64,000 nucleotides of DNA, taken from Candidatus Latescibacterota bacterium (GTDB lineage Bacteria; Latescibacterota; UBA2968; UBA8231). The notes below the pieces were generated by a model, which worked only from the letters and a program-made list of their open reading frames with translations, made no database searches and was not told the origin of the DNA. The stretch spans positions 1,120,001 to 1,184,000 of the forward strand of contig CBDAOB010000005.1 of the NCBI GenBank assembly GCA_965197905.1, written 5' to 3'. The position numbers were made by a program, and so were the translations under genes. Numbering within the stretch: the stretch's first letter is position 1; each line of letters opens with the position of its first letter. This document shows, piece after piece, positions 7,048-45,819 of the stretch.

Positions 7048-8549
7048 GAGTGTGTCCGGGTATTACGCATTTGAGATGAATGAGTCACCGCTGGTTGTGC
7101 TGTAACACGTCGAGTACCCGGTGCATGAGTTTCATCTCGCGAAGAAGGCCCTATTTTGGCTGCGCCTGCGGGCGGAATTCAGCCATCGTGATCAACCAGT
7201 CGCCGATATCGGGCTCCATCCGGAGCGCATTAGCTTAAGAATGTTGTTGGCCATGCATACCAGCGACCATTCGCCCTGCACTTTACGATGACCGCGCAAC
7301 AGAAATTGGCGAAAGCCCAGCGCTTCCTTGATTTGACCGAAAACCGGCTCGGCCGACATCTCTCGTTTTTTGTATTCGGCGCGGCCGCGTTGGGTGCACA
7401 GCTTGCGCAGCATGCGATCCTTGCGACTGAGATCTTTCGGGATCCGGCCCCGAGGCGCCGTCATCTGCCGCCATTGCGAATGCTTGATTCTCTTCGGTGC
7501 CACGAACGGCTCGATGTCGTTGGCTTCCAACAATTCGATATCCGATTCCTTCCAGTAACCAGCATCGGCGCTGACCTTCTTCGGGGCCCGCTCTTGCTCC
7601 AACGTTACCTGCTCGACCAGCGGCAGCAGTTGCCCTTGGTCGGGGGCTGTCTGGCTGACTTGCGCGACGACCACTATCTGCGAGTCCGCGTCCACCGCGG
7701 CCTGGCAGCTGTAGGCCTGGATGAAGGCTTTGTCGCTCGACAGCATGATGCGGCTCTCCGGGTCGGTGAAGTTGCGTTGCGCTTTGGCCTCGGGCTCCTT
7801 CTTGCCCCGGGCCTTGGCTTCGGCCTCCAGCGTCGCCTTGGCCGCCTGGATTTTCTCCAGCCGCCGTTTCGGGTCGGCCAGCTCTTTGGGCAGTTCGTCG
7901 CCCGTCTTGTCGGCGCCATAGAGTGCGTCCTCGGCCGCATCGACCGCGTCGCACTCTTCAAACCACCGACGGATGTCGGCGCGCAGCCGCTCTTCCTCTT
8001 TTTTCATCCGGGTATAACTCATCGCCTTGTGCTTGCCGGCATGCGCTCGCACCTTGGTGCTATCCACCGACAGGTGACCCAGCTTGACCAAACCCGCCTC
8101 GCGGCACAGGGCTACCACTTGCGTGAACAGACCCTGCAAAGCGTCCAGATGACGGGCACGAAAGGCCGCCAGCGTGCGGAAATCCGGCGCCTGACCGGCG
8201 GCCAGTACGCGAAACGCCACATCCTCCTGACAGGCTTGCTGCATCTTCCGCGAACTACGCACGCCGCGCACGTAGCCGTAAACAATCAGCTTCGTCATCA
8301 ACAACGGATGATACGGCGGATACCCACGCTCTTCCTCGTAGCAGGACAGAATAGGCTGCAGGTCCAGCGTCGCCACCAAGTCGTTCACAAAGTAGACCGG
8401 ATGGTCTTCCGGTAGCCATTCTCGAAGCGAAGGCGGCAGCAACAACAGCTGATCAGGGGCGTAAGCACGGAACGTCTTGGACATCTATCCACCTCCGGGT
8501 CATCGTCTGCCCCTAAGATAGGGATCATGACCATTACTCGGACACACTC
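7048..8549 (-). mobile_element. IS1182-family insertion sequence, 1502 bp
   Basis: Terminal inverted repeats GAGTGTGTCCGGGTATT (7048-7064) and GAGTGTGTCCGAGTAAT (reverse complement of 8533-8549), 15/17 identical; flanked by CTAG at 7044-7047 and 8550-8553. Confidence 0.92.
7192..8484 (-). CDS. IS1182-family DDE transposase
   Basis: LLLPPSLREWLPEDH, GYPPYHP, SSRK, PDFRT, VDSTKV, NFTDPESRIM, ADAGY, YKKR...EPVFGQIK...GFRQFLLRG; GGAGG RBS. Confidence 0.95.
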   Translation of the reverse strand: MSKTFRAYAPDQLLLLPPSLREWLPEDHPVYFVNDLVATLDLQPILSCYEEERGYPPYHPLLMTKLIVYGYVRGVRSSRKMQQACQEDVAFRVLAAGQAPDFRTLAAFRARHLDALQGLFTQVVALCREAGLVKLGHLSVDSTKVRAHAGKHKAMSYTRMKKEEERLRADIRRWFEECDAVDAAEDALYGADKTGDELPKELADPKRRLEKIQAAKATLEAEAKARGKKEPEAKAQRNFTDPESRIMLSSDKAFIQAYSCQAAVDADSQIVVVAQVSQTAPDQGQLLPLVEQVTLEQERAPKKVSADAGYWKESDIELLEANDIEPFVAPKRIKHSQWRQMTAPRGRIPKDLSRKDRMLRKLCTQRGRAEYKKREMSAEPVFGQIKEALGFRQFLLRGHRKVQGEWSLVCMANNILKLMRSGWSPISATG

Positions 8550-11548: not shown

Positions 11549-13144
11549 ATGGCCGGCAGTCGAGAAGAGATTCGAGCACGAGGTAGCTACTTTCCCGGAG
11601 ACTGGGTTCGACCGCGCTACAATCCCAGCGACTGGATACCGCTGGTAGATGCCGTGGAGATATTCACCGGTCACCGCAGCGTCAACCGCCAGGGTCGGTT
11701 CGAGCTTTACGACGCGCCGGTCGGTGTCGTGCTCAGGGTTGAAGAAGCGCGAAAATCGAAACCGATTATTACACCGGAAAAGGAGTGGGAGTTGGGTGGA
11801 TCGATTAACGCGTTCTGCATCTGGGCGGAGGGAGGGCGGCTGAAGATGCTCTACGTGACGGTGACCTCAACCTGTTACGCCGAAAGCGACGACGGGTATC
11901 ACTGGGAGCGACCGAGCTTGAACCGGGTAGAGTGGAAGGGTAGCACCGATAACAACATCACCATGGACACCCCCATCGGGGCCTCCGGTTTCTTCGAGGA
12001 CCCTTCCGCTCCCGCCAGCGAGCGATACAAAGCGATGGGTGGGCACGGCTTCTGGATCGACCTCGATACCGGGGAGGAGGTTCCTGACGATGAAGCGGAC
12101 AAGCTGTGGCGGGCCTGGCAGTACGCGGGACGTAACTACCAGGGGCGCAAGGTGGAGCTGAAAGGACACCTCCATGGTTGGACCTCTGCTGACCGATTGG
12201 AGTGGAAACCGATGCCGGAGCCGCTTGCCCGATATTCGGTAAACGGAGGTATCGCGGCGCGTTACGATGAAGAGACCGGCTCCTATTTTGGCTATATGCA
12301 GCCCCAGGGCGCGGCTCCCACCGAGCTGGTAGGAATCGGCAGCGGCGCCCCCGAGACCGAAGTGGTGCGCCGGGCGGTGGGCATAGCGCGCACGAGCGAC
12401 TTCAGCAACTGGCCGGCTTCCAAACTACTGATACATCCCGACGGACAGGATCCGTTGGACATCTCGTTCTACGGGGCCTGCTATTTCGCGTACCCGGGAC
12501 GCACCGATCTGCACGCGATGATTCTGCCCGTATTCCATCAGACCAACGACAATATGGATATTCAGATCGTCTTCAGCCGCGACGGACTGATCTGGAGTCG
12601 TCCCGATCGCCGGCCAGTTCTCAGCAACGGCAAACGGGGGGATGGTGACGAATGCTCGATCCACCCCTGGCGCAATGGCATGGTTGAGCTGCCGGATGGA
12701 AACTGGGCGGTTTCCTTACAGGCCGGCTCCGTCCTTCACAACGTCGAAGAGGAATACCAGCGCGAGATCTTCCCCGAGATGCAGGAGCCGCGGCTGTGCT
12801 GGGCGTTGTGGCGGCCGCACCGGCTTTGCGGCGTAGAAGCGGAGAGCGAGGGACGTTTTACGATCCCGACCATTTTTCGCCAAGGCGATGAGCTGAGATT
12901 GAATTACCGCTGCGCGCCGGGAGGGTGGATCAGCGTGGAGCTGGTCGAGTTCCTGCCGACGATGTTTTGTGTCGATGTGGATCAGATACCGGGGTTCAGC
13001 TTCGCGGAATGCGATCGGCTTCAAGGGGATGAAGAGGACCAGGTCGTTTCGTGGAACGGCAAGAGTGACATCTCCGGAGTCGGGGAGACCGTCGGTATCC
13101 GGATTCGCATGTTCCAGGCCAAGCTCTTCGCCTATCGCGTCTAG
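11549..13144 (+). CDS. Hypothetical beta-propeller glycoside-hydrolase-like protein (Asp-box repeats)
   Basis: Repeated S-x-D-G-x-x-W-like motifs (AESDDGYHW, TSADRLEW, TSDFSNW, FSRDGLIW); ATG 11549 follows AGAGGA RBS. Confidence 0.6.
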   Translation: MAGSREEIRARGSYFPGDWVRPRYNPSDWIPLVDAVEIFTGHRSVNRQGRFELYDAPVGVVLRVEEARKSKPIITPEKEWELGGSINAFCIWAEGGRLKMLYVTVTSTCYAESDDGYHWERPSLNRVEWKGSTDNNITMDTPIGASGFFEDPSAPASERYKAMGGHGFWIDLDTGEEVPDDEADKLWRAWQYAGRNYQGRKVELKGHLHGWTSADRLEWKPMPEPLARYSVNGGIAARYDEETGSYFGYMQPQGAAPTELVGIGSGAPETEVVRRAVGIARTSDFSNWPASKLLIHPDGQDPLDISFYGACYFAYPGRTDLHAMILPVFHQTNDNMDIQIVFSRDGLIWSRPDRRPVLSNGKRGDGDECSIHPWRNGMVELPDGNWAVSLQAGSVLHNVEEEYQREIFPEMQEPRLCWALWRPHRLCGVEAESEGRFTIPTIFRQGDELRLNYRCAPGGWISVELVEFLPTMFCVDVDQIPGFSFAECDRLQGDEEDQVVSWNGKSDISGVGETVGIRIRMFQAKLFAYRV

Positions 13145-13203
13145 CAGCCAGTGGCGAAAAGCCATTCGGCCTCGCCGTTCAAAGGGCCTCTCACCACGGG
13201 CCG

Positions 13204-15372
13204 CTAGTCCAGCTCCACCAGGACAACCTCGTGCATCTCCACCTTGGGCACGACGACGCCGGCCGGACTGCCGACCAGATCCAGGATCTGGTCCTGCAGC
13301 GGCAACCGGGCAGACTTGGGGTCGAATCCGTGGAACGAGATCTCGATATTGTGGATCGGGTTGAGCTCTCGGAGGTAGAAGTGGCTGGTGATCTCCTGCT
13401 CGCCCGCCGCCATAGGCAGCATTGGCGTCGGGTTGTTGAGCAGGTGAATGACCAACTCCTTCTCTGACCGTTTACAAGCGGTGATCTCGATCGCCTCAGG
13501 CGCCTTGACAGACAGAGGTGCGGGGGTCCGCCTTACCAGATTGGCGACGAATCGCTGCGCTCCAGGATACGGATTGCTGATAAAACCCTCGCCCACATCA
13601 CAGCCGATGTAGATCGCGTTTCCCTTGCCAAACCGGTTCAGGGTCACTGCAGGTTCGCCCGAGTCGTACGGCTTCGACGGATGGAAGTTCTGCAGCGGTG
13701 GTTTCCCCTGGAGGCTGCTGCGGGTGCAGAGCGTCTTCACGTTGGCGGCTGATCGCAACGACACCTGGGTCTGATGCCCAGCGCAGCAGATGACGCGGCC
13801 GACTTCAGCCTCCAAGCTTTCGTCGTGCGGAACGTACACCACGCCGCCCAGATCGCCCTCGCAAACTCCGCTTTCGTAGTCGACAGCCAACACGTCAGCC
13901 AGAGCGAAGTTGGTGCGCCGCTGTCCGAATTCGTCGAGGAGCGAGGTTTCCTGGGTGGCGACCAGGGTTCCGCCGGCTGCTACAAAACCGCGGATGCTCT
14001 CGCATTGCTCCTCGGAGAGACAGCTGTTGGCGAGGTAGAGCACCGAATAGGCCGACAAGTGCTCCTCCTGCAGCTGGTCGTCCAGGATCATGTCGAACAG
14101 CAGGTGCGATCGATTGAGCATCTCGTAGGTGCCGTGAACGTTCCGCTGAGCAATCGAGGAATAATCCAGCTGCCACAGATTCTTCGGCATCTCCGACGGA
14201 CGAAAATCACGGCATTGCTGAGAGTAGTGCAGAGCGAGGTACTTGACCGACTCGCCGGCCATGTAATCGACCCTCTGCTTGAGAATGGAGAACACGGTCT
14301 TGCACGTTGCTCGGTGAAGATCGATAGGACCGCCGAAAGAACCGAAGATTGTGCTGCCCCCGTTAATGATCGCCTCGAGCCCATGAAGAGCGGGCGAGTA
14401 CGGTTCCTGGTACGGGGCGTACGCCGAAGTGCATTGAGGCAGGGATTGAATCGGGTTGCGCCAGACGCAGAAGGGCGTGCCCAGCGCCCGCGCCGCTTTG
14501 GCGATAAACCCGGTCTCGCGCACGGTCCGGTGTGCTTCGATGAAATAGTGATCGCCGATCTCCCCAATGGGCAACGGATTCAACTGATGCCCATCGACCC
14601 ACTCTGTCGTAGGACGGGCATAATAGTGGTGGTCGAGGATGATGTCCGGGTACTTCTCGCGCATGCGGGCGCTGAGATGCACGACGAAATCCAGAAATTT
14701 CTGGTAGCGCCAATTGAGAAACTGGCGAAAATCCGGGTTCGCGAAGTCGACCTTGCGTGGCAGCCGCAGCCCGGTGTCGGTTTTGAACAGCTCCTGGCAG
14801 TAGATGCAGCAGCAGCTGGGATGGAACGGTCTGCCCGCGTGAGAACCCCAGTTTGTGTCGTCGAAGTAGAACCCGTCCAGGTCGAGGTTATCCATCCATT
14901 CGGTGAGGTATTCGGGCAGCCAGTCGCGGTGGGGTGAGTTGAAACAAAACCAACCTTCGTTCTTGGGTTGGGGGCGATTGAAGTCGAGAAACTCCATGAG
15001 CCACTCAGGATGCTCGTTTTTGAGCGGCTTGTTAAACATCATGGCGTAGTAGAGGAGCACGACGATCCCCTTTTCATGGGCGAGCTCCAGAAACTGAGGT
15101 AGGCGCTCCTGGTCTACGTGCTCGTGAGCCGGCAGCATCGTCGATCGGAATCGAGCATACCCTCGCTCCACTTCGCCCACGATCTGCACGTCGATCCCGA
15201 CGTCCACCAGGAAATCGACATATTCCTCCACCGAGGGACCGGTGTAGGTCGGCTCATGCGACAGACAGCTTGGGTACTGCTCAACCCGGCCGACCCTCTT
15301 CTCGTACGGCAGTTCGCGCAGTCGCTGGACGATTGTTCCGACACGGCGGACGCCACTAGATTTCTCGTTCAC
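13204..15372 (-). CDS. Putative glycoside hydrolase, paralog of 1531-3708
   Basis: Shares PYEKRV, GWFCFNSPHRDWL, DGFYFDDTNWG, CxCxYC, YExLNRSH, YDSGEP, MHEVVLVE with the first copy. Confidence 0.75.
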   Translation of the reverse strand: MNEKSSGVRRVGTIVQRLRELPYEKRVGRVEQYPSCLSHEPTYTGPSVEEYVDFLVDVGIDVQIVGEVERGYARFRSTMLPAHEHVDQERLPQFLELAHEKGIVVLLYYAMMFNKPLKNEHPEWLMEFLDFNRPQPKNEGWFCFNSPHRDWLPEYLTEWMDNLDLDGFYFDDTNWGSHAGRPFHPSCCCIYCQELFKTDTGLRLPRKVDFANPDFRQFLNWRYQKFLDFVVHLSARMREKYPDIILDHHYYARPTTEWVDGHQLNPLPIGEIGDHYFIEAHRTVRETGFIAKAARALGTPFCVWRNPIQSLPQCTSAYAPYQEPYSPALHGLEAIINGGSTIFGSFGGPIDLHRATCKTVFSILKQRVDYMAGESVKYLALHYSQQCRDFRPSEMPKNLWQLDYSSIAQRNVHGTYEMLNRSHLLFDMILDDQLQEEHLSAYSVLYLANSCLSEEQCESIRGFVAAGGTLVATQETSLLDEFGQRRTNFALADVLAVDYESGVCEGDLGGVVYVPHDESLEAEVGRVICCAGHQTQVSLRSAANVKTLCTRSSLQGKPPLQNFHPSKPYDSGEPAVTLNRFGKGNAIYIGCDVGEGFISNPYPGAQRFVANLVRRTPAPLSVKAPEAIEITACKRSEKELVIHLLNNPTPMLPMAAGEQEITSHFYLRELNPIHNIEISFHGFDPKSARLPLQDQILDLVGSPAGVVVPKVEMHEVVLVELD

Positions 15373-15531
15373 GGTCCAACTCCTTGGTTCCGGGTCATCT
15401 GGCCGGCTTCGACAGCATCATGGTAGATCTTCCTCAAGGCGGATACAAGCTGACCGAATTTGAAGGGGGTCCGATCTATGTCTTTATTTTCACCGGTCCG
15501 CAGATAACGACAGAGAGGATTTTCGTCTCGG

Positions 15532-16383
15532 GTGTCAACGAACGCGGAAAGCTATTCCGCCTTTGCTCCAGGGTGTGTATCGTGCCTTTTCAAGGTTATC
15601 CCTCATGTGGATCCACGGCATATGCATTCGTTGGGCATGAGCTTCACGGTGCGCGACGGTGTCAGCGCCCGCGTTGCGCCATCGTCTAGTTGTGAGGTAC
15701 GGTTCAACGGTCAGCAAATCGAATTTCCCACTGTCCGTTCCGCGTTAGAGCGATTGACCGACGAGCCGGTCAAGGTGGAGCTGGAATCGTCCCTGTCTCT
15801 GGCCAGCGGTTTCGGGCTCAGCGGCGCCTCGACCCTGGCAACGCTCTTCGCCATTAACCGCAGGTTCGGTCTGGAGATTGCCGATCGCGACCTGGCCATG
15901 GCTGCACACGTGGCAGAGGTAGAGAATCTTACGGGACTGGGAGACGTTTGCGGCCAGTTCCATGGAGGGTGCCTGGCGAAACTGCAGGAGGGCGATCCAC
16001 TCAAAGCGTCGGTTCTGCCCGTGGCGGAGCAACCGATTTACTTTCGTTACTACGGTCCCATTCAGACCAGCGAAGTGATCGGCGATCCGCAGCGCCGAGT
16101 GCGGATCAACCTTGCGGCCGATTCGGCGCTCGGCAAACTTTCCGACTTGCAGGAGCGTAAAGAAGAAGATCTCGATTCCTACATCGAGATCGCCAGGGAG
16201 TTCGCAGAAAAGAGTGGATTGCTCACCGACGAGCGGGTGCGGGGAGCTATCGAAATGATCGAAAACGCCGGCGGAAGGGCATCAATGATCATGTTGGGCA
16301 ATGCCGTTTTCAGTACGCAACCTTTCGAAGGCTCGCGCGAAACCTCGCTGAGCGTGCGAAGAGCTGGGGCTATCGATGACTGA
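15532..16383 (+). CDS. Pantoate kinase (archaeal-type PoK, GHMP kinase family)
   Basis: GHMP loop SGFGLSGA; AHVAEVENLTGLGDVCGQFHGG and SMIMLGNAVF motifs typical of archaeal PoK; overlaps the PPS gene. Confidence 0.85.
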   Translation: MSTNAESYSAFAPGCVSCLFKVIPHVDPRHMHSLGMSFTVRDGVSARVAPSSSCEVRFNGQQIEFPTVRSALERLTDEPVKVELESSLSLASGFGLSGASTLATLFAINRRFGLEIADRDLAMAAHVAEVENLTGLGDVCGQFHGGCLAKLQEGDPLKASVLPVAEQPIYFRYYGPIQTSEVIGDPQRRVRINLAADSALGKLSDLQERKEEDLDSYIEIAREFAEKSGLLTDERVRGAIEMIENAGGRASMIMLGNAVFSTQPFEGSRETSLSVRRAGAIDD

Positions 16384-17110
16384 GGTTCCGAAAAGTCACC
16401 CGCGCTACCAATCCCTGCGTTTGCGGGAGGTTATCGTCGCCGGGGTGGAAGAAGGGGTAACCTCTGTTCACGGGCTGCTAGCCCACGGTCGTGGTGAGGC
16501 GTTCGACTATTTGTTGGGGGAACGCACGCGGCGTTTCGCCAAGAAGGCAACGCGAGCCGCGGCGGCCATGCTACTTGCGGCAGATCATCCGGTCGTATCG
16601 GTAAACGGCAACGCCGCGGCGTTGGTGGCTGGCGAGTTGGTATTTCTGGCCGAGCTCATCGGGGCACCGCTGGAGGTCAATATCTTTCATTCATCGAAGA
16701 ATCGGGAACGCGCCATCCGCAATCGCCTCACCTCGTTCGGAGCCAAGCAGGTCTTGATGCCGGACAATATGACGACCATCCCCGGGATCGACTCTAATCG
16801 ACGTCATGCGAACCCCAAAGGAATCCTGCGCGCGGATGTGGTTTTCGTGCCCCTGGAGGACGGGGACCGCTGCGAGGCATTGGTGAAGGCGGGAAAGAAG
16901 GTGATCGCGGTCGACCTGAACCCGCTGTCCCGAACCGCGCGGAAAGCGCACATCACCATTGTCGACAACGTGATCCGAGCCCTGCCGAATCTCTTGCAAC
17001 AGGTAGACCAACTCAAGAAAAAACCGGAATCACAGCTGCTCACCGTGGTGAAGGAGTATCGCCAGCGAGACGAGCTGAAGGAAGCAGTCCAAACTGTCCG
17101 GGGGAAATGA
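16376..17110 (+). CDS. 4-phosphopantoate--beta-alanine ligase (archaeal-type phosphopantothenate synthetase, PPS)
   Basis: VPKSHPRYQSL, AHGRGEAFDYLLGERT, PVVSVNGN, ADVVFVPLEDGDRCEAL, VDLNPLSRTA, TIVDNVIRA. Confidence 0.93.
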   Translation: MTEVPKSHPRYQSLRLREVIVAGVEEGVTSVHGLLAHGRGEAFDYLLGERTRRFAKKATRAAAAMLLAADHPVVSVNGNAAALVAGELVFLAELIGAPLEVNIFHSSKNRERAIRNRLTSFGAKQVLMPDNMTTIPGIDSNRRHANPKGILRADVVFVPLEDGDRCEALVKAGKKVIAVDLNPLSRTARKAHITIVDNVIRALPNLLQQVDQLKKKPESQLLTVVKEYRQRDELKEAVQTVRGK

Positions 17111-17121
17111 GCAGCATGCTT

Positions 17122-18463
17122 CTAATGGGGGTGGGTGCAGTGGTCGACCACTTCTGCGATTTCAGCCGCCATCTCGTTGCCTAGGTGTTCTTTGAGCTCG
17201 CCGGCACGCCTTTCGTCGAGGCCAAGTGCCGTCAGCACCTCGGGGTTGTAGTTGGGCTCTTCTTCGGACATATAACCCAGGTCCAGCTCCTTGCTGAGGT
17301 TGTTGGCCACGTGGATCAGGCAAACTAGATCTCCAGGCGCTTTGCCCACTGAATCGTGAGAGCCCACGGCGTCGGCCAGCTCCTTGCCGACATTCGATTT
17401 CAGCAACAGCAACTTTCCCAAGTATTCGTGATTGGCCGCGTCACCAAGCTCCTTTTCGGCCTGCCGGAAGGAAGATTGGTGTTCGGACATCTGGCGCAGA
17501 ATCTCCTCATAATGATCCCAGAAGAAAAACCAGCACGATCTTGCCGATATCGTGTAGCAGCGCGCCGATCCAGTAGTCGTTGAACTGCAGCGATTTCTTC
17601 GTCTTTACGATACCCTTGGAATAGAGCCGGTCGGCGATCATGGTACATCCGACGGAGTGTTCCCAAAAACGCCTCAAGTCGAACATGCTTTCTTCCGGTC
17701 GCACCAGACCGTTCATCATTTTGATCTGCTGCGCGATGGAGCCCACCTTCTTTCTCCCAAGTCGCACGATAGCCTCCTTGAGACTCCAACCTCCCTGGTG
17801 GCCGCTGCCGGCAAAGACCGGTGAATTCACCAGCTGCAACATTTTGTGTACGATGGCGGGATCGTTTACCACGAGTTCTTCAAGGTCTTCGGCTGTCGAA
17901 CTTGGCTCCTCCACCATTCCCATGATACGCATGGCGATTTCGGGCAAAGTCGGAAGGGTGTTGAGGTTCTTCAGACGCCGGACGATGCGTTCGCGGGCAT
18001 CCTCGTCGGACGCCCCCTCCAGTTCCTTGAAGAGATCGCCTATGCCCCGGGCATCAAACGCCGACTTGATCAAGCTCTGGAGCGACGTCTCCTCCTCGCC
18101 AAACGCTTTTTCCCAGGCGCCGAAATAGACATTCTTCATACGGTGGCATAGGGTTTTGTGCTCCTCCATAAATGTCGCGGGCAGCACCAGGAAAAGGGGG
18201 ACTGTGTCCTCTGCGTTGAGCGCCGCGAGTGAGGTGGAGCTGTCTATCTTCTTGCGCTGAATAACGAAGGTGGCGCAGATTTCGTTCTTCTGTCTCTGAA
18301 TGGTTGAGAAAGCCTCGACGAAGTTGCTCGCGACGATAAGGTCTAGGCCGTAGCGATAATTCAGGATCATCATCAGAAACTTGGCGATTACCTGGTGGGG
18401 TTTGCCAGGTTCCTGGATAATCAACGCCAGCTGCTGAGGGCTGGCTGCTTCCGCTGAAGACAT
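17122..18463 (-). pseudogene. HDOD-domain signalling protein with one frameshift near 17525 (probably a sequencing error)
   Basis: LPTLPEI, DPAIVHKMLQLVNS, AIVRLG, FWEHSV, ALLHDIGK; the C-terminal part FWDHYEEI...EKELG...HEYLGKLL continues in another frame after a T5 run. Confidence 0.75.
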
Positions 18464-18704
18464 CTTCCCTTGTGGTTTGGAGGAAGGTAATGCCGGGGAT
18501 CAAGGTCGTCGGCATATATCACGTCGATCATAAGAATATAACGACTGCGAATTCAATAGGTAAGGTAGTAGAGTTGGCGCTGGCAGCCCCTGCCGTAGAC
18601 GGATGGAGCTCACCTTGATTCGCGTTTTCCAGCCCGATATATTCGACCTGCCAACGCACACTAGCAAATACCAGACAGGTACCCATCCGACAGGCGGTGC
18701 AGTG

Positions 18705-21230
18705 ATGTCCAATCCTTTCGTGCCCATCGACTTGACCGGCAGCTTCAACGCCGGATTGGAAAATCCCGATTTAGGCGATCGGCGGCTGTGGCCCTCGTCC
18801 GCAGGGGATCCCGACGACACACCGTTGCAACGCCTACCGGCCGGCGATGTTCAGTTTTGGGGAATCCCTTTTAACCTGGCCTCGGCGAGCGCGAGCAAGC
18901 GTTTTGTCCTGGTTTGCCAGGAGGGGGCGGAGGTCGTCCCGGACTCGATCACCATACCTGTGGGCACCGAGGCGCGGCGGCTCCTGTTTGCCCATGTGTG
19001 CGCCCCCACGGGTAGCGAATCTCCAACGCTTGAAGGCGCCGGTGAGCCGATCGGCGAGTACCGGATTCTGTTCGAGGATGGCAGCGAGAGCGTGCAGCTG
19101 CGCCGTCGCTTCGAAGTGCACGACGTGGAGATTCCCTGGGGCCACCACCCGTTTCAGTGCCGCAACTGTCAATTGTTCCGCTCGGTGCCGGTGGATGATC
19201 GCAACCTGGTTTGGGGGCGGGCACAGACAGGCGTGTACAGCGGAACTCTGGACGATCAGGCCAGCGACCAGGATGGATGGTGGCTCTTCGACTGGGAGAA
19301 TCCTTCCCCTGAGAAAACGATCAAGGCGATCGAGGTCTCAGCGGCTGGGGAAGCCGCATTGGCGCTGGGAGCCATTACGGTCTGCAACGAGGATCGCGAT
19401 CCGCTGCTCTGGGTCCCACGTAAAGAGGTCGCGGTGGCGGTTGAAGGCAATACAGACGGGGCCGCACCGCAGGTTGAGATGGACCGGGGCGTAATTGCGC
19501 GGCAGGACGACCTGTTGGTTCCTGGCGAAGATTTCCTCGACACCGACGAAGCGGGGTGGGGTGTCGGGGGCCAGCGGGTGGAAAAAGGCGGATATCTGGA
19601 GATTCACGGATCGGCGGAAGGTACGATCCAAGTCAAGGCGGCGGAAGACAAAACCCAACTCTTTCGGTGGGGCGATCTGCTCGAGCAAGGAAGTCAGGAG
19701 CAGGGTCGCGTGCGGATCGAGCTTGTGAGTCCTCACGGCAAAGAATGGGTGCATGTCCGCGTTGAGGATGAAACCACCGGGAACCCCGTAGGTGCGCGGA
19801 TCCATTTCCGCTCGGCTCAAGGCGCTTATTTCGCCCCCCACGGCCATCAGGCCGATGTCAACGACGCGTGGTTCGAGGATCTCGGCGGCGACTGTCGCAC
19901 CCGCGGAACACCATACGCTTACATCGACGGCACCTGTCAGATCGAATTGCCGGTTGGTCAGGTGTTGGCGGAAGTCGTGCGTGGCTTTGAGTATGTGCCG
20001 GTGCGGCGGGAGCTCGAGATCAAACCTGGACAGCGAGATCTGACCCTCAAGATTCGCCGCTCCATCGATATGAAGGAGCGGCGCTACTATTCGGGCGACA
20101 CCCATGTGCACTTCCTCTCGTCCCAGTCCAGCCACCTGGAGGCTGCTGGCGAAGATCTCAACGTCGTCAATCTCCTTGCCAGCCAATGGGGTCGACTCTT
20201 TACCTCTTGGGAGGAATTTACCGGCGGCCTTTCCCCAACGAGCAGCGCCGACCACCTGATTTGGGTCAGTCAGGAAAACCGGCAACATGTGCTCGGTCAC
20301 ATCAGTCTCCTGGGATTGAAGGAGATGGTTGCGCCCATGTGCACCGGCGGTCCCAACGAGGATTGGATAGGCGGCGAAGTACAGACCCTGATGGCCGATT
20401 GGGCCGAAGCGTGCAGGCGACAGGGCGGCACTGTCATCATGCCTCACATGCCCGTTCCAGATTTCGAGAACGCCGCCAACATCGTGCTCGGACAGGCAGA
20501 TGCGGCGGAGATGTGCTGGGTTTGGCAGGGGGAGAAGATAGGGCAGGGAGAGCGGGGTTATTACCGATGGCTCAACGTGGGTCAAAAATTGCCCATCGTC
20601 GGCGGCACCGACAAGATGTCCAATGGGCGTATTCTCGGGGGCTCCCGAACCTATGCAAAGCTTGGGGACGACGAGGAGTTCACCTATGAGAATTGGTGTA
20701 AGGCGGTTCGTCGCGGAAACACCTTTGCCAGCACCGGGGCGATGATCGATCTCAAGGTGGAGGGTCACAGCATGGGAGATGAGATCCGTCTACCCGGCAA
20801 CGGTGGACGGATCGAAGTCGATGCCGTGGCCGAGAGCGTTTGGCCCCTGACCGGGATCGAACTGATCGTCAATGGTGAATCGGTTGCCCAGGAGACCACG
20901 GAAGGTGAGCGCCGAATCAGCATCAACTTCAAACTCAAGACCGAGGTGTCCTGTTGGGTCGCAGCCCGTTGTTGGGGCTCCTACCTCACCGATGCAGGCC
21001 CGGTCATGGCTCACTCATCCCCCGTGTACATCGATGTAGGGAAGAGGGAGGCCTTTGTTGAGGCCGAGGGGAACTATCTCCTGACCCACATGGAGGGGGG
21101 TATCGCCTGGGCCCAGCAGCTCGGCGTGTTCAAAGATGACTCCGTGCGAAACCGATTGATCGCCCTCTTTCGCGAGGCGCAACGGGAACTGCAGCGCCGG
21201 GGGTGCCACGAGCAAACCGAGCCGGCGTAA
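18705..21230 (+). CDS. CehA/McbA-family PHP-like metallohydrolase
   Basis: SGDTHVH, QENR...GHISLLG, WLNVGQKLPIVGGTDKM, RTYA, AHSSPVY. Confidence 0.75.
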   Translation: MSNPFVPIDLTGSFNAGLENPDLGDRRLWPSSAGDPDDTPLQRLPAGDVQFWGIPFNLASASASKRFVLVCQEGAEVVPDSITIPVGTEARRLLFAHVCAPTGSESPTLEGAGEPIGEYRILFEDGSESVQLRRRFEVHDVEIPWGHHPFQCRNCQLFRSVPVDDRNLVWGRAQTGVYSGTLDDQASDQDGWWLFDWENPSPEKTIKAIEVSAAGEAALALGAITVCNEDRDPLLWVPRKEVAVAVEGNTDGAAPQVEMDRGVIARQDDLLVPGEDFLDTDEAGWGVGGQRVEKGGYLEIHGSAEGTIQVKAAEDKTQLFRWGDLLEQGSQEQGRVRIELVSPHGKEWVHVRVEDETTGNPVGARIHFRSAQGAYFAPHGHQADVNDAWFEDLGGDCRTRGTPYAYIDGTCQIELPVGQVLAEVVRGFEYVPVRRELEIKPGQRDLTLKIRRSIDMKERRYYSGDTHVHFLSSQSSHLEAAGEDLNVVNLLASQWGRLFTSWEEFTGGLSPTSSADHLIWVSQENRQHVLGHISLLGLKEMVAPMCTGGPNEDWIGGEVQTLMADWAEACRRQGGTVIMPHMPVPDFENAANIVLGQADAAEMCWVWQGEKIGQGERGYYRWLNVGQKLPIVGGTDKMSNGRILGGSRTYAKLGDDEEFTYENWCKAVRRGNTFASTGAMIDLKVEGHSMGDEIRLPGNGGRIEVDAVAESVWPLTGIELIVNGESVAQETTEGERRISINFKLKTEVSCWVAARCWGSYLTDAGPVMAHSSPVYIDVGKREAFVEAEGNYLLTHMEGGIAWAQQLGVFKDDSVRNRLIALFREAQRELQRRGCHEQTEPA

Positions 21231-21245
21231 ACGAGATCGAAACCC

Positions 21246-22637
21246 GTGGACTTCGCACGTTCCTTGCCCGTAATATCCGAACCCGATGTACTAGTGGTCG
21301 GCGCGGGGTGTGCCGGCACTGCGGCTGCGTTGGCAGCGGCACGCCTCGGCGCCAACACCATGTTGGTCGAACGCTCTGGTTTCTGCGGCGGTTACATCAC
21401 TAACGTCTGCGGAGCGGGTCTGGACGGATTCGTGGATCTGCGTTCCGGGCGTCCCGTCGCAGGGGGAATCGCCATGGAACTGGCCACAGCCGCGGCGATC
21501 ACAGATGCCCCACAGCCGCTGAGAAACGCCCGATTCCACTTCAACGTGGAGCTCGGGCACGTCCGCGATGATCGTGATCGGCACCGAATTCGATTCGACG
21601 TGGAGCGCTTCAAGCTGACCGCTGATCGGCTGCTGGCTGCTGCCGGTGTGCGCGTGATCTATCACACGGTTGTAGCCGACGCCATCGCAAGTTCTCAGCG
21701 GGTGGACGGTGTGGTGGTAACCAACAAGGCTGGGCTGGGTGTCATCAAAGCCCAGATCGTTGTGGATGCCAGTGGCGATGCGGACGTGGTGGCGTTTGCC
21801 GGCGGCGAGTTCGAGTTCGATCCCATGGATTGCCAACCGATGAGTCTCCATTTTCGTGTTGGCGGTATAGCACCCACGCGCGAGCTGCGAATGGCCTGTG
21901 GTGCGGTTTTGGACGCGGCCCATCGCGACGGACTCCTTGGGTTATACGCTGGGCCGTGGATGTCGGAGATCGCCCCTCGAGAGGTGTATTTCAATGCCAC
22001 GAGGATCAATGGCAACCCGCTTGATCCGGAAGATCTGAGTCGCGCCGAGGTTCGGGGACGCGAGGATGCTCATGCGATGTTCGCCTTGTTCAAACAACAC
22101 ATTCCCGCGTTCCGCGACGCCCACTTTGCAAGCAGCGGGCCCACGGTGGGGGTGCGCGAATCCCGTCGGGTACGAGGTGTAGGAACTTTGACCGCCGCAG
22201 ACATCGTCGAGCGGCGCTCCCATCATGATGTTGTCGGCCTTGGCGCCTAGTGGCTGGATCGCCATCCATCGACAAGCTCAGGCTATCATGAACACGTGTT
22301 GGTGCGACCGTACGACATTCCGTTTGGCACTCTCGTTCCCATCGGTATGGCGAATCTGTTGGTAGCCGGCCGCTGCCACTCCGCCGAGGCAGGGGCGCTG
22401 GCGTCCAGCCGGGTCACCGTTACCTGTATGGTAATGGGAGAGGCAGCCGGCACTGCAGCCGCGCTGGCAGCCGAGAGAAAGGTGGAGGTGCGGGCCGTGC
22501 CCGTTGCGGCGTTGCAAGACAGCTTGCTGGCGAACGGGGCCGTCATACTCGAGCAGGCGGACCGTCTACGCGAGGAAGGGGATCGCATCTCCCACAGGGA
22601 GACGGCGACCCCCAATCTCGATCTCGAGGAGAAATAA
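21246..22637 (+). pseudogene. FAD-dependent oxidoreductase (FAD_oxidored family) with an in-frame TAG at 22248-22250
   Basis: DVLVVGAGCAG, VDASGDAD, GVRESRR; after the TAG the same frame continues WLDRHP...YDIPFGTLVP...NLLVAGRC...SSRV...CMVMGEAAG. Confidence 0.8.
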
Positions 22638-40359: not shown

Positions 40360-40959
40360 GTGGCTAAGCCGAAGATTGAAAACTGGGAAAAGATCGACAG
40401 CCAGGAGGTGGTCGATTGCAAGATTCTACGAGTGCGCCGGGACCGCTCGAGGTCGCCGCGTACCGGGTCGGTCCACGACGTTCACATTCTGGAGATGCCG
40501 GACTGGATCAACGTGGTTCCCGTGACCGCAGAGGGGAACGTGGTTCTCATTCGCCAGTTTCGTCACGGCATGGAAGAGACGAAACTGGAGATACCGGGTG
40601 GAGCCGTTGAGGCGGGGGAAGCGGATCCCATGCAAGCAGCGCGCAGAGAGTTGCTGGAGGAAACGGGGTATGCAGCAGAGACTCTCGTATCCCTCGGCTC
40701 GGTAGCCCCGAATCCCGCAATACAAAACAACCGATGTTCCAGTTTTCTAGCGGTGAATGCGGCGCTGGCAGGAGGGCAGCAGCTTGACGACGGAGAAGAT
40801 ATCGAGGTCGAAGAGGTGCCATTTCGTTCGATACCCGAACTGATTCGAGACGGCACCATCAATCACAGTCTCGTGGTTGTAGCGTTTTATCTGTTGGAAA
40901 AGTATCTCGAAACCAATCCGCTCTCAGTATTGAAACCAGAGAAACAGGCCGAGAAATAG
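40360..40959 (+). CDS. Nudix hydrolase (ADP-ribose pyrophosphatase-like)
   Basis: LIRQFRHG, EIPGG...AARRELLEETGY. Confidence 0.88.
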   Translation: MAKPKIENWEKIDSQEVVDCKILRVRRDRSRSPRTGSVHDVHILEMPDWINVVPVTAEGNVVLIRQFRHGMEETKLEIPGGAVEAGEADPMQAARRELLEETGYAAETLVSLGSVAPNPAIQNNRCSSFLAVNAALAGGQQLDDGEDIEVEEVPFRSIPELIRDGTINHSLVVVAFYLLEKYLETNPLSVLKPEKQAEK

Positions 40960-42606
40960 CACGACAAGCAAAGCGCCGCTACTGGTTCTCCAACCCTTGC
41001 CGAACAGTCCGCCCGGGCCGTTGAGAATCTCCGCGATGGCCATCAATCCGAACGCGAGAAGCTTTAGGCTTCCCAGGCCGACATCCCGCAGCGGAGCCCC
41101 GATTCGCGTGAATCCGCGAACGGTTGCCGGCAGTAGCTTGCGGTAGACCCAGTCGGTATCGACGTTGACGCAGGGTAGCTCGGGCGTCTCCAGATGTCGC
41201 AACGCCAGCACTGCGAACGCCAAAAGCGCGAACACCAGAAGCTGCAGCTGGGTGACCACGTGGCCGGTCGTATACGGCTCGAAGTCCACAGAGTGGGGCA
41301 GGATCGCGTAGAGTGGCGCGGGATAGACCCCAATGCCGACGCAGAGGGCCGCGGTGATTCCCATGGCTACGAGCATGTTCCAAGGTGCTTCTTTGCAGCG
41401 CAGCCCGGAGTTGTGACCGAAGAAGCCGTAGAATGGGATCTTGATACCGGAGTACACGCCGGCAGAGGCGAAGAGGAGAACGAACCAGGCAGCCGTGTAA
41501 CCTCCGTTGGCGACGGAGGTCAGAGTCAGGGATTTGGTCACAAAACCACTGAACAACGGGAATGCGGATATGGAAGCGGCTCCGATGATACAAAAGAAGG
41601 TCGTCAAAGGCATCGACTTGTAGAGTCCGCCCAACTCAGATGCCTTCACGGTTCCCACACGATGCAGGACCGCACCCATAGACATGAACAATAGCGCCTT
41701 GTAGAGGATGTGGGCGAAGGCATGGGAGACGGCGCCGTTGATCCCCATCGCTGTTCCCACTCCGATGCCGACTACCATGAATCCCAGTTGATTGTTAAGG
41801 CTATAGGCCAGCACTCTGCGCAGGTCATTCTCAATCACCGCGAAAAACACAGGAAAGGCTGTCATCGCCACCCCGATCGGAATCAGGATATCGGTGCCCG
41901 GATAACCGCGGGCGAGGGTGTAGACCGCCAGCTTGGTGGTAAAAGCACTCAGAAAGACGGTTCCCGTTACGGTCGCTTCGGGATAGGCATCCTGGAGCCA
42001 GTTGTGCAGGAAGGGGAAGGCACATTTGATGCCGAAGGCCAGAAAGATCAACTTGCCACCCAGGCTATCGATTCCCAGCTCCCCGAAGATGATCGATCCG
42101 GTTTCGTGGACGTGCATCAGCACGCCTGCCAGAAGTATTACGCCGGATCCGACCTGAATGACCAGATAACGCATGCCGGCCTTGTACGCCCGTTCGGTGC
42201 GCGAGCTCCAGATCAGAAAGACCGAAGAGATCGCGGTTAGCTCCCAGTAGACGAACAGGGTGATGAGGTCGCCGGCGAAGGCGCCCCCGATGGCGCTGCC
42301 GGCGTAGATCAACCCCGCCACATGTTGGGTGTTGTCTTTCAGGTGAAGCGCATACACCACGCTCAGAATCGCGGCGATGTGGAAGATGTAGCCGAATACG
42401 AGGCTGAGCTTGTCGATGCGAACGGCGGCGAGGGTGTAGTCGAAGATCTCGATCTGCCCGTAGATGCCCGGCGACATGTGGTAGAGGTGCGCGAGGCTCG
42501 CCACGGGCAACAGCAGGAGGTATACGGCCTGCAATCGCGTCCGCAGCAGCGGTACCAGCAAGGCACCCAGGATCATCACCGATCCGGGCGGCAGATTAAC
42601 CGTCAT
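40924..42606 (-). CDS. mrpD: Mrp Na+/H+ antiporter subunit D (third D-like subunit)
   Basis: Proton-antiporter membrane subunit: YWE, PFLHNWLQDAYP, LSAFTTK, RRVLAYS, HILYKALLF. Confidence 0.85.
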   Translation of the reverse strand: MTVNLPPGSVMILGALLVPLLRTRLQAVYLLLLPVASLAHLYHMSPGIYGQIEIFDYTLAAVRIDKLSLVFGYIFHIAAILSVVYALHLKDNTQHVAGLIYAGSAIGGAFAGDLITLFVYWELTAISSVFLIWSSRTERAYKAGMRYLVIQVGSGVILLAGVLMHVHETGSIIFGELGIDSLGGKLIFLAFGIKCAFPFLHNWLQDAYPEATVTGTVFLSAFTTKLAVYTLARGYPGTDILIPIGVAMTAFPVFFAVIENDLRRVLAYSLNNQLGFMVVGIGVGTAMGINGAVSHAFAHILYKALLFMSMGAVLHRVGTVKASELGGLYKSMPLTTFFCIIGAASISAFPLFSGFVTKSLTLTSVANGGYTAAWFVLLFASAGVYSGIKIPFYGFFGHNSGLRCKEAPWNMLVAMGITAALCVGIGVYPAPLYAILPHSVDFEPYTTGHVVTQLQLLVFALLAFAVLALRHLETPELPCVNVDTDWVYRKLLPATVRGFTRIGAPLRDVGLGSLKLLAFGLMAIAEILNGPGGLFGKGWRTSSGALLVVLFLGLFLWFQY

Positions 42607-42865
42607 AATAATCTTCCTTGCGCATTACGACGCGTCGCCAGAGCCAACCGCCACCGACGATTAACGAGTAGGCGATGAAACCGAAGATGGCGTAGAACCC
42701 GAACCACTCCTCGATGGCGTAGTGCACGTGCTTGTGGTAGACCAGGTCGGCGAGGATCAGGAGGACACTGACTACCAATAGCGAAACGAACAGCTTCTTT
42801 ATGCTGCCCGGCCGCTCCAGCCATCCGGCTTGCTGATCACCTGCCTGATTTTTTTCCTCTTCCAT
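42596..42865 (-). CDS. Small membrane protein within the mrp operon
   Basis: Two TM helices; translationally coupled between D-like subunits. Confidence 0.7.
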   Translation of the reverse strand: MEEEKNQAGDQQAGWLERPGSIKKLFVSLLVVSVLLILADLVYHKHVHYAIEEWFGFYAIFGFIAYSLIVGGGWLWRRVVMRKEDYYDG

Positions 42866-42871
42866 CTCAGC

Positions 42872-44335
42872 TCACCTGCCGACGATAGGGAGAAGCATGC
42901 GGTAAAGATCGTCGGCGTAGAAAAAGAGTACCAAACATCCCAACGCGGTAATACATAACGGCATGACGCAAAAGAAGGGCGCCTCGTTGAATTTCAATTT
43001 CGGACCCGGACTCGCGGGAGTCGCGAAGAACGCCCGCGCCACTACCGGCATCAGGTAGCCTATGTTCAAGAGCGAGCTGAACATCAGCACCGCCACAAAA
43101 ACAATCTGGTCAGCCTCGAGCGCACCCAACGCCAAATACCACTTGCTCCACGAGCCGCCCAGCGGAGGAACTCCGATGATACTCAAAGCCCCGATCAGAA
43201 AGGCGAACAAGGTTATCGGCATAGCCCGCCCGATCCCGGTCATATCGCTGATCTCGGTCTTGTGCAGAGCTACGTTTATGGCTCCGGCGCAGAAAAACAG
43301 GGTGATCTTGCCGAACGCGTGCATCGCAATGTGCATGCTGCCGCCGATCACGCTCCAACCGGTGGCCAGCGCGGCGCCCAGTACAACGTAGGCCAGCTGA
43401 CTGATGGTGGAGTAGGCCAGACGAGCCTTCAGATTGTCTTTGGTAAAAGCGACCAGGGAAGCGATGATCACCGTGCCTCCGGCGACATACATCAGCCAGA
43501 TGTTGGCGCCGGTGCTGCTGAGAAAATCGATGCCGAAGATGTAGACGATCACCTTCATCACCGTAAATACACCAGCCTTGACGACGGCTACGGCGTGCAG
43601 TAGCGCGCTTACGGGGGTAGGTGCCACCATTGCCGCAGGGAGCCATCGGTGGAACGGCATCAGGGCAGCTTTGCCGGTGCCGAAGGCATACAGAGCTAGG
43701 AGTACGACCACCATGCCTTCGCTCGCCTTGCCTTCGAGAATGCCTCCAGGAACGAAGTCAACCGTGCCCGCGATATGCCAGGTCCACACCAGTGCCAGCA
43801 GCAGGAAACCGACGGAGGTGCCCAGGAGAATACCCATGTAGATCCGCCCGGACTTTCGCGCCTCCGCGGATCTGTGATGAGTCACCAGGGGATAGGTCGA
43901 AAGGGTGAGAACCTCGTAGAAGATGAATAGAGTGAACATGTTCGCAGCAAAGGCCACACCCAAGGCGGCGGTGATAGCTACGGCAAAAAAGAAATAGAAG
44001 CGGGTCTGCTGTTCCTCGTGATGTCCCCGCATGTACCCGATGGAGTAGAGCGAGGTGATGATCCAGAGTCCCGAGGCAACCAGGCCAAACAACATACCCA
44101 GGGGTTCGATCTTGAATCCGATGGAAAGGCCAGGAAGGACCTGAATCAGTTCGACGGCCGGGTGAAATCCTGCGAGCACCTGCGGCACCAGAGAGACCAC
44201 CACCACGAAGGTCGCCACGCCCGTGACCAGCGTCGCCAGTTCGCGCAGGTTGGGGCGCCGCCCAAGCAGAGCGATGACCGGCGAGCCGGCCAGGGGCAAC
44301 AGGATGGCGGTGATGATGGCGGTGGAGGCGATCAT
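42872..44335 (-). CDS. mrpD: Mrp antiporter subunit D-like (second)
   Basis: FYE, PFHRWLPAAMVAPTPVSALLHAVAVVKAG, LKARLAYST, HAFGK. Confidence 0.88.
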   Translation of the reverse strand: MIASTAIITAILLPLAGSPVIALLGRRPNLRELATLVTGVATFVVVVSLVPQVLAGFHPAVELIQVLPGLSIGFKIEPLGMLFGLVASGLWIITSLYSIGYMRGHHEEQQTRFYFFFAVAITAALGVAFAANMFTLFIFYEVLTLSTYPLVTHHRSAEARKSGRIYMGILLGTSVGFLLLALVWTWHIAGTVDFVPGGILEGKASEGMVVVLLALYAFGTGKAALMPFHRWLPAAMVAPTPVSALLHAVAVVKAGVFTVMKVIVYIFGIDFLSSTGANIWLMYVAGGTVIIASLVAFTKDNLKARLAYSTISQLAYVVLGAALATGWSVIGGSMHIAMHAFGKITLFFCAGAINVALHKTEISDMTGIGRAMPITLFAFLIGALSIIGVPPLGGSWSKWYLALGALEADQIVFVAVLMFSSLLNIGYLMPVVARAFFATPASPGPKLKFNEAPFFCVMPLCITALGCLVLFFYADDLYRMLLPIVGR

Positions 44336-45819
44336 GCTCCGTTCCCCAGCAACCAGCGCGCGGCGTGCTTAGCGACGCCGGCTGTCTGCGATGTGAAGAT
44401 ACCCAGCACAAGGGTGGCGCCGATCAGCAGCCACATCGGAATTTGCATGGTAAAAGGCGCTTCGGTCACGGTGTCCTTGCCCTCAGGAACCGGCTGAAAG
44501 TAGGCTACTTCGACGACTCGCCATACGTAGACCGCCGCCAACAAAGAGCTCAACAGCAGCAGAAACGCCAGCGGCCACCACCCCTTCTCCAGGGCTGCCT
44601 GGATGAGGTACCACTTGCTGACGAACCCCACGGTCAACGGAACGCCGATCAGACTCAGGCCACCAAGAACGAACGCGGTCATGGTTACCGGCATTCTCTT
44701 TCCGAGTCCCTGGAGATCCTTGAGCTCTACCGAGCCAATGCGGAGCGCGATACACCCCATGGCAAGGAACAACCCGCCCTTCATCAGGGCATGGTTGAAT
44801 AGATGCACGATGCCAGATGTGAGGCCGTTGAGCGACAGCAGACTGATGCCCAGCATCATATAGCCCACCTGGGCGACGCTGGAATAGGCCAGCATGCGTT
44901 TGATGTTGGTCTGGAAGATCGCCACCGTCGAAGCGACGAAGATTCCCACTACAGCCAGGGGCATTAACACCTGGTCGACCCGCATAGTCGCAAAGGAAAA
45001 ATCGACGCCGAATATGGTGAACGCGAAACGCAGGAAAACGTAGATCGAAACCTTCGTTGCGGTGGCAGCGATAAACGCGCTGACCACCGATGGCGCATAA
45101 GCGTAGGCGTTTGGCAACCACAAGTGGAGTGGGAACAACGCCAACTTGAGAAATACACCGACACTGAAGAACGCAAAGGCGACCAGCACGGTGCGGCTTC
45201 CGCTGGCCGGTGCCATTTGCAGTCTGGTGGCGAGGTCAGCCATGTTCAGGGTGCCCGTCATCATATACATCAGGCCGACACCGATCAGGATGAAGGTGGC
45301 GCCGATGGTGCCCATCACCAGGTACTGGTAAGCTGCGGTCAGGGCGCGGCGGTCCTTGCCCATGCTGATCAGGGCGTAGGATGACAGGGACGAGATCTCC
45401 AGAAAAACGAAGAGATTGAAAGCGTCGCCGGTAGCTGCGATCCCGAGCAAACCGGTGAGGCAGAGCAAGTAGGCGGTGTAGAACAGCGTCTGGTGGCGCT
45501 TGGCAATTTCGGCCCCAACGCTTGCCGGGGCGTAAAGAAGCACGACCGTGGCGATGAGTCCCACCAGCAGCAGCACGAAGGCATTCACCACATCGATACG
45601 CAATTCGATGCCCCAGGGCGGGCTCCAGCCGCCCACGGCATACGACAGCGCACCGTGTTCCAGGACCGCCGTCAGCAGCTGCGCTGCGATCACCATCGTG
45701 CAGGCGCTCACGAGAACGGAAAACGCCCACACCAAATGCCGCTGGCGCAAGAGCAGGCAGATTGGAGCTGCCACCAGCGGTACGACGATCTGCAGGACGG
45801 GCAGGTGTGTTTCGATCAT
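44332..45819 (-). CDS. mrpD: Mrp antiporter subunit D (first)
   Basis: DAFNLFVFLE, PLHLWLPNAY, KRMLAYSS, NHALMK. Confidence 0.9.
   Translation of the reverse strand: MIETHLPVLQIVVPLVAAPICLLLRQRHLVWAFSVLVSACTMVIAAQLLTAVLEHGALSYAVGGWSPPWGIELRIDVVNAFVLLLVGLIATVVLLYAPASVGAEIAKRHQTLFYTAYLLCLTGLLGIAATGDAFNLFVFLEISSLSSYALISMGKDRRALTAAYQYLVMGTIGATFILIGVGLMYMMTGTLNMADLATRLQMAPASGSRTVLVAFAFFSVGVFLKLALFPLHLWLPNAYAYAPSVVSAFIAATATKVSIYVFLRFAFTIFGVDFSFATMRVDQVLMPLAVVGIFVASTVAIFQTNIKRMLAYSSVAQVGYMMLGISLLSLNGLTSGIVHLFNHALMKGGLFLAMGCIALRIGSVELKDLQGLGKRMPVTMTAFVLGGLSLIGVPLTVGFVSKWYLIQAALEKGWWPLAFLLLLSSLLAAVYVWRVVEVAYFQPVPEGKDTVTEAPFTMQIPMWLLIGATLVLGIFTSQTAGVAKHAARWLLGNGA

Follow-up and report, generated by a model that had tools for sequence, protein, structure and literature searches.

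An archaeal-type pantoate kinase and phosphopantothenate synthetase gene pair in place of panC and coaX in a probable Latescibacterota genome

The order of the two steps from pantoate to phosphopantothenate in the synthesis of coenzyme A (CoA) has been used as a marker to separate archaea from bacteria. Bacterial PanC and type III pantothenate kinase (PanK, encoded by coaX) have the same input and product as pantoate kinase (PoK) together with phosphopantothenate synthetase (PPS), but they are unrelated enzymes that act in the reverse order. The window, that is the whole stretch of 64,000 nucleotides analysed here, carries two overlapping genes that an initial annotation had read as PoK and PPS in a bacterial setting. 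This locus raises the question of whether a bacterium makes phosphopantothenate in the archaeal order and, if so, what became of its panC and coaX. We consider it probable that PoK and PPS make 4'-phosphopantothenate in the archaeal order in this genome, following one gain of the pair and the displacement of panC and coaX.

The first gene (15532-16383, plus strand) has a GTG start and encodes a GHMP-family protein of 283 aa, assigned as PoK by NCBIfam models, a PDB profile and a predicted structure. Its top two NCBIfam models were both pantoate kinases, at 138 and 65 bits, and the next family scored 30 bits. Both scores are below the equivalog cut-offs (138 against 380 for NF040725 and 65 against 500 for NF041122); since all eight control proteins occupying the PoK slot, six of them archaeal, were also below both, with 131-185 bits on NF040725, these cut-offs appear to be lineage-bound. 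A single-sequence search of PDB returned the pantoate kinase 6JBC (E 5.6e-15), and with a profile of 60 sequences the match to 6JBC reached E 1.6e-50, against 9e-9 for the next GHMP kinase. The AlphaFold model (pLDDT 95.5) matched 6JBC with Z 33.3 and rmsd 1.9 over 263 residues, the second structural match being mevalonate kinase at Z 26.2. Membership of another GHMP subfamily was ruled out by the differences in all three comparisons, each of which placed pantoate kinase closest. The PoK of close relatives is often annotated as 253 aa, equivalent to an internal ATG at 15622. The GTG is preferred here because a start at that ATG removes the first beta-strand (residues 8-23), including the invariant Pro13. 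A purine-rich, Shine-Dalgarno-like run in the sequence 12 nt 5' of the GTG (15512-15519, plus strand) is a putative ribosome-binding site; no sigma70-like promoter was found upstream of PoK, the promoter scan being at chance level.

The second gene (16376-17110, plus strand, ATG start) encodes 244 aa and was assigned as PPS, the 4-phosphopantoate--beta-alanine ligase, by Pfam, NCBIfam, PDB and motifs. It matched PF02006 with E 2.8e-69 and 232.7 bits (cut-off 26.4) and scored above the cut-offs of both NF010324 (344 bits, cut-off 227) and NF041123, the model for the 4-phosphopantoate--beta-alanine ligase itself (303.5 bits, cut-off 300). The solved enzymes 3WDK and 4MB0 were matched at E 1.2e-70 and 2.3e-70, respectively, and the motifs HGRGEAFDY, VNGN, PLEDGDR and DLNPLSR are common to all three proteins in the alignment. 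Residues G38-E41, N77, G78, E161-R165 and R186 did not vary in any of the 108 homologues aligned. The host proteins therefore belong to the same folds and families as archaeal PoK (6JBC/6JBD) and PPS (3WDK, 4MB0), and the initial reading of the two genes was borne out, with coordinates that proved exact.

By the ORF coordinates the stop of PoK and the start of PPS overlap by 8 nt (16376-16383, plus strand), an arrangement that likely reflects translational coupling. The PoK stop was located -8 to +12 nt from the PPS start in 26 of the 27 loci measured in the family, and the 27th is frameshifted. At this last locus (L030; G164:C2, ~977500-978900) the second half of PoK joins the frame of PPS, possibly through a sequencing error. 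A PoK-PPS fusion was considered and rejected for the loci examined, where the long frames that stay open around PPS come from upstream overlap in a different frame and the two genes are separate ORFs save in that frameshifted copy. No Rfam match was obtained in the 64-kb window.

The host genome (G000) is metagenome-assembled, with 6.69 Mb in 5 contigs, 91% completeness and 4.5% contamination. The metagenomic origin and the contamination, together with a PoK GC3 of 0.655, which is low beside the 0.657-0.761 of its neighbours, might suggest that archaeal DNA bearing the pair was wrongly joined to a bacterial contig or placed in a bacterial bin, yet we regard this as exceedingly improbable in view of the continuity of the locus. 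Window positions 12000-21500 were compared with contigs from sequencing runs of three studies; the best-matching dataset may be the source sample and is left out of the count. One contig from a second study covers 13414-16075, from the upstream gene into PoK, with 1 difference; another covers 16955-18368, from PPS into the HDOD gene; and a contig from a third study covers 14041-16558 at ~97% identity. Each of these bridges part of the stretch, and no one contig runs across the whole of it. In the single-contig genome of another member of the genus (G098), the gene order is colinear here except for two genes. The GC of the pair, 0.58-0.59, equals that of the genome, and PoK is 50-90% identical to bacterial homologues as against 22-43% to any archaeal one. 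A chimera is thus rejected, since independent contigs bridge both flanks and the congeneric genome keeps this gene order. The bacterial setting described in the initial annotation is upheld by mnmA, confirmed in the window, and by a bacterial rpoB on the same contig as the pair; the sigma54 activator that it also named was not recovered in a scan of 31 ORFs at E<=1e-20. Elsewhere in the window, a DDE transposase of the IS type (DUF772; 7192-8484) is located upstream of the locus, with no match in the corresponding region of G098, and three MrpD-like Na+/H+ antiporter subunit genes stand in tandem at 40924-45819.

The host probably belongs to the Latescibacterota. Its RpoB shares 82% identity with the protein of a Ca. 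Latescibacterota-titled record and 80% with that of a record bearing the title Gemmatimonadaceae; both records fall inside the family clade in the RpoB tree, so that the record labels conflict. Among the 120 nearest RpoB proteins eight carry an organism label, five of them Latescibacterota or Latescibacteria, two Gemmatimonadetes and one 'bacterium'; none is labelled Poribacteria. A poribacterial host was rejected on this ground and because the RpoB of five Poribacteria is 49-59% identical and forms a separate clade. Another rpoB-like match, a partial one over model positions 453-846, was observed in a 1937-codon open frame of the host genome (G000:C3:766537-767655) and is also found in G098.

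If the pair is the working route, the enzymes of the bacterial one may be dispensable, and the gene content of the genome is consistent with this. PanC, coaX and coaA were not found in the host genome, at 91% completeness, with searches whose controls matched in 9, 7 and 10 of 14 genomes, respectively. A search for type II PanK gave zero matches in the host and likewise zero in the control genomes. Present are panB, five PanE-family matches and two full-length IlvC matches, as well as coaBC, a coaD motif and a bacterial coaE (PF01121). The rest of the pathway is accordingly bacterial, in contrast to the archaeal route, and neither panD nor a PF00282 decarboxylase (the PLP-type aspartate decarboxylase) was found in the genome. 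In the proposed pathway PanB, followed by a PanE or IlvC enzyme, would yield pantoate; PoK would phosphorylate pantoate at the expense of ATP; PPS would ligate beta-alanine in a second ATP-dependent step to give 4'-phosphopantothenate; and CoaBC, CoaD and CoaE would complete CoA. The pair would then be the only route in this genome from pantoate to phosphopantothenate.

The absence of panC and coaX can be followed to their old positions. In the panC-bearing genera of the same family (f1), panC lies after folB-folK and coaX between genes for an M23 peptidase and an S41 protease. Both neighbourhoods are intact on contig C5 of the host, which means that the absences there do not stem from missing sequence. 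After folB-folK a GH113 gene takes the place of panC with the flanking genes in order, and ~320 bp of intergenic DNA separate the M23 peptidase and S41 protease genes. No convincing remnant of panC or coaX was found at the old sites. The best candidate, a match of 147 aa at 22% identity (E 0.003 in 2.3 kb of sequence), was discarded as it lies inside the ORF that Pfam calls GH113. Since PoK and PPS are present and panC and coaX are gone from these sites, the archaeal route is likely the one in use.

The distribution of the genes in the family corroborates the exchange. Among 168 genomes of the phylum PPS was found in 33, PoK in 32, panC in 125 and coaX in 130. Family f1 comprises 76 of these genomes in 18 genera, and PoK and PPS occur together in 32 of them, distributed over 14 genera, none of the 32 having panC or coaX. 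Another 43 genomes, in four genera, carry coaX (40 of them also panC) and neither PoK nor PPS, and one lacks all four genes. Both routes were thus found together in 0 of 76 genomes, a count made on related genomes and hence on non-independent observations. Two of the carriers (G147 and G164) have a partial or frameshifted copy. The bacterial route of PanC and CoaX is accordingly that of 43 of the 76 genomes and of most of the phylum, and outside the family PoK was found in 0 and PPS in one of 92 genomes. In that one genome (G031, family f13, 96% complete) PPS adjoins a divergent CoaX-like gene scoring 63 bits (L027:657-2280; contig C45), and neither panC nor PoK was found; as FastTree placed this PPS with Bathyarchaeia, it was probably acquired separately. 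The loss of panD is not tied to the exchange, given that panD is present in only 4 of the 76 genomes of f1 whichever route is used and is absent from most panC-bearing relatives.

The carriers probably form one subclade of the family, with moderate support. An RpoB+RpoC tree of 41 genomes united them in a single clade within the family (FastTree 0.968), and IQ-TREE recovered the same clade from 27 genomes with an SH-aLRT of 72.9. In an AU test of four trees the carrier clade was best, with two alternatives rejected (p 0.003 and 0.031) and one not (p-AU 0.09). A tree of RpoB only, with fewer taxa, did not recover the clade. The surroundings of the pair were also compared by synteny in relatives. 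Downstream (17122-21230) are a 122-aa ORF, an HDOD-domain gene and an 875-aa ORF without a Pfam match, of which at least one stands beside PoK-PPS in seven of the nine relatives examined (of genera g1, g9, g10, g15, g17 and g18) and none in genera g7 and g8. These neighbours are not CoA genes; they mark the ancestral site of the pair, and those that are shared occur in both halves of the carrier clade. The probable single subclade and the mostly shared downstream neighbours make one old gain likely. The 875-aa ORF (18603-21230) is conserved across the family, with orthologues 58-95% identical, and in carriers it usually lies 3' of PoK-PPS. An empty insertion site was sought in panC-bearing relatives, and in the four regions fetched the 875-aa neighbour was present without adjoining HDOD or glycosidase neighbours. 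With these two located away from the 875-aa gene, the entry point of the pair is not mappable.

The history of the genes themselves was approached with a concatenated PoK+PPS tree of 54 of 79 genomes under LG+G4, from which 25 near-redundant rows and two duplicate loci were left out. The sequences of the family, Poribacteria, two Gammaproteobacteria, Methylomirabilia, Dehalococcoidia and one more bacterium formed one clade (100/99). This clade joined Verrucomicrobiales and Woesearchaeota/Nanoarchaeia-like sequences, two of them titled Methanosarcinales, at 100/100 and apart from other archaea. On this sampling the closest archaeal kin of the bacterial PoK/PPS clade are the Woesearchaeota-like sequences. 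Within the clade the genus of the host groups with Gammaproteobacteria (95/88), and monophyly of the family's sequences alone was rejected (p-AU 0.0009). A gene tree forced onto the split of the species tree was not rejected (p-AU 0.35), nor was monophyly of all bacterial sequences (p-AU 0.22) or a position of the host genus next to canonical archaea (p-AU 0.099). Poribacteria nested inside the family, a matter of donor direction, were favoured, the alternative with Poribacteria outside being borderline (p-AU 0.057). With archaea represented by the nearest hits, an uneven composition and an assumed root, the trees cannot fix donor or direction. As the clade of the genes spans several bacterial phyla, the immediate donor to the host lineage may have been another bacterium.

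These trees also bear on a different history, in which the ancestor of the family held both routes and its descendants lost one or the other, or in which the pair entered several times, instead of once in one subclade. The rejected monophyly of the family's genes, the grouping of the host genus with Gammaproteobacteria, the modest support for the carrier clade and the missing neighbours in g7 and g8 would all fit such a history. The rejected monophyly is, however, also explained by export, with other phyla nested in the sequences of the family, and the downstream neighbours common to both halves of the carrier clade, as well as the lack of any genome with both routes among the 76, argue against it. 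We consider this history unlikely. In the preferred reading the pair would have been gained once by the ancestor of the 14-genus subclade of one Latescibacterota family, rendering panC and coaX redundant, and both would then have been deleted in a non-orthologous displacement. The initial annotation had proposed an inter-domain transfer that may have replaced panC and coaA or coaX. The replacement stands, in that panC and coaX are gone from their ancestral sites and coaA was not found; the transfer is old and shared, and among the archaea sampled the bacterial clade lies nearest to Woesearchaeota-like sequences.

The pair extends beyond the family. PPS stretches were also sought across species genomes, and 534 were confirmed; by title, the best 80 of these 534 comprise 23 Poribacteria, 15 other bacteria and 42 archaea. 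Eight of the 23 Poribacteria, 13 of the 15 other bacteria and G031 were tested for PoK, panC and coaX. PoK was found in 17 of these 22 genomes, with panC and coaX both missing from all but one of the 17; the carriers in this set include Gammaproteobacteria, Verrucomicrobiales and Dehalococcoidia, and some may be misbinned contigs. A bin titled Methylomirabilia (G171) combines PoK-PPS with a match to coaX and with a panC that is frameshifted (L043:4167-5735 and L180:3889-4591), possibly a replacement in progress or else a binning mix, the contig GC being 0.66 vs 0.63. In a bin titled Klebsiella pneumoniae, where panC was not found, PPS-coaX lies on a 9-kb contig with a GC of 0.63 (L062:5001-6511) that is probably misbinned.

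The substrate of the kinase deserves separate consideration. The host kinase is 26% identical to 6JBC, in which His10 corresponds to Cys15 here and Arg155 to Lys150. The other archaeal PoKs sampled have both His and Arg (22 of 22), while all 55 bacterial and Woesearchaeota-like sequences covering the His10 site have Asn, Ser or Cys there, with Cys in the genus of the host and Asn or Ser in other bacteria. This subfamily without the His mostly has Lys in place of Arg. The kinase specificity could differ owing to these two changes. Ser28, Ser104, His131, Glu134, Asp143, Arg155 and Thr186 of the T. kodakarensis PoK were reportedly mutated by Tomita in 2012, and six of these seven residues are identical here, Arg155 being replaced by Lys. 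The six, Ser28, Ser104, His131, Glu134, Asp143 and Thr186 of 6JBC, which are reportedly functional residues, align with Ser33, Ser97, His126, Glu129, Asp138 and Thr179.

One may speculate that the same genes lead to the same end product by relaxed or reversed chemistry, the kinase also or mainly phosphorylating pantothenate, the ligase taking pantoate, or both. Such a pair would act like PanC and PanK and be able to salvage vitamin B5. The missing N-terminal His and the mostly replaced Arg would be compatible with this, as would the family title in Pfam and NCBIfam, 'phosphopantothenate/pantothenate synthetase'. Furthermore, in five of the 22 genomes tested a PPS-family gene adjoins type III PanK with no PoK found, three of the five having the arrangement panB-PPS-coaX; these three, however, also retain panC. 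The six matched residues with a reported functional role, the PPS score above the 4-phosphopantoate ligase cut-off and the co-occurrence of PoK and PPS in 32 of 32 carriers in the family speak against altered chemistry, and it appears quite improbable to us. The activities predicted for PoK and PPS are those of a pantoate kinase and a phosphopantoate ligase, and family membership and genome content make their pathway role likely; no assay of a bacterial PoK or PPS was found in the literature searched. The three panB-PPS-coaX arrangements are in Acidobacteriota records, where the genes are consecutive (L050:3948-6669, L058:4117-6663 and L075:4102-6532), PoK was not found with the query used and panC lies elsewhere in each genome. 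Such genomes may use a mixed route, or their PPS or CoaX may have changed its substrate.

Archaeal PoK and PPS have been characterised as a pair in T. kodakarensis, and PMC6650551 calls the two enzymes unique to archaea. The exception that the initial annotation named in Poribacteria does exist: according to PMC7883664 (Thomes and Lescure 2020), 31 of 38 Entoporibacteria have PoK and 34 have PPS, free-living Poribacteria have the bacterial route, and no coexistence of both routes is known. Entoporibacteria, as described there, lack PanK and PanC, and in the present host neither PanC nor PanK of types I and III was found; both have PoK and PPS together with CoaBC, CoaD and CoaE of the bacterial kind, and in both cases close relatives retain type III PanK and PanC. 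Identity between the poribacterial proteins and those of the host is 52-56% for PoK and 56-60% for PPS, and both sets belong to the same bacterial clade. The cases differ in lineage, in that the split here falls within one family and the deletion sites are mappable, and in that PanE-family genes are present, whereas the paper reports no classical KPR in Poribacteria. It also puts the poribacterial enzymes near Euryarchaeota, while a direct grouping of Poribacteria with archaea was rejected in our trees (p-AU 0.003 and 0.016). In the literature searched, whose coverage left out most subscription papers, no PoK/PPS report for Latescibacterota was found and the exchange in bacteria is published for Poribacteria only. 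As the host is not a member of the Poribacteria, its lineage is new relative to PMC7883664. Two records with the pair have groundwater titles (L045, and L082 with PPS and with PoK elsewhere in the genome), showing that it is not confined to sponge symbionts.

A wider scenario can be offered tentatively, and we think it somewhat doubtful as a whole. The PoK/PPS lineage without the His would have long been mobile among bacteria, with the Latescibacterota family as a hub to Poribacteria, some Gammaproteobacteria, Methylomirabilia and Dehalococcoidia, and panC and coaX would have been expelled each time. The poribacterial case would then be a transfer from bacterium to bacterium and not a sponge-specific archaeal gift, and the kinase might also phosphorylate pantothenate.

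Here, a known phenomenon is extended, and the mechanism is not new. The additions are the host lineage, the mutual exclusion within one family with mapped deletion sites, and a bacterial origin in common with Poribacteria. A second host lineage with a clean exchange inside one family, where the vacated panC and coaX sites can be mapped, makes a neat example of how central metabolism can undergo non-orthologous displacement; the published exception had been read, in PMC7883664, as an adaptation of sponge symbionts. Annotation pipelines that seek PanC and PanK would call these genomes CoA-defective, and the kinase loses its N-terminal part in the shorter gene calls. Should the kinase accept pantoate alone, free pantothenate would be neither released nor salvaged by these cells, and models of vitamin B5 cross-feeding would have to take this into account.
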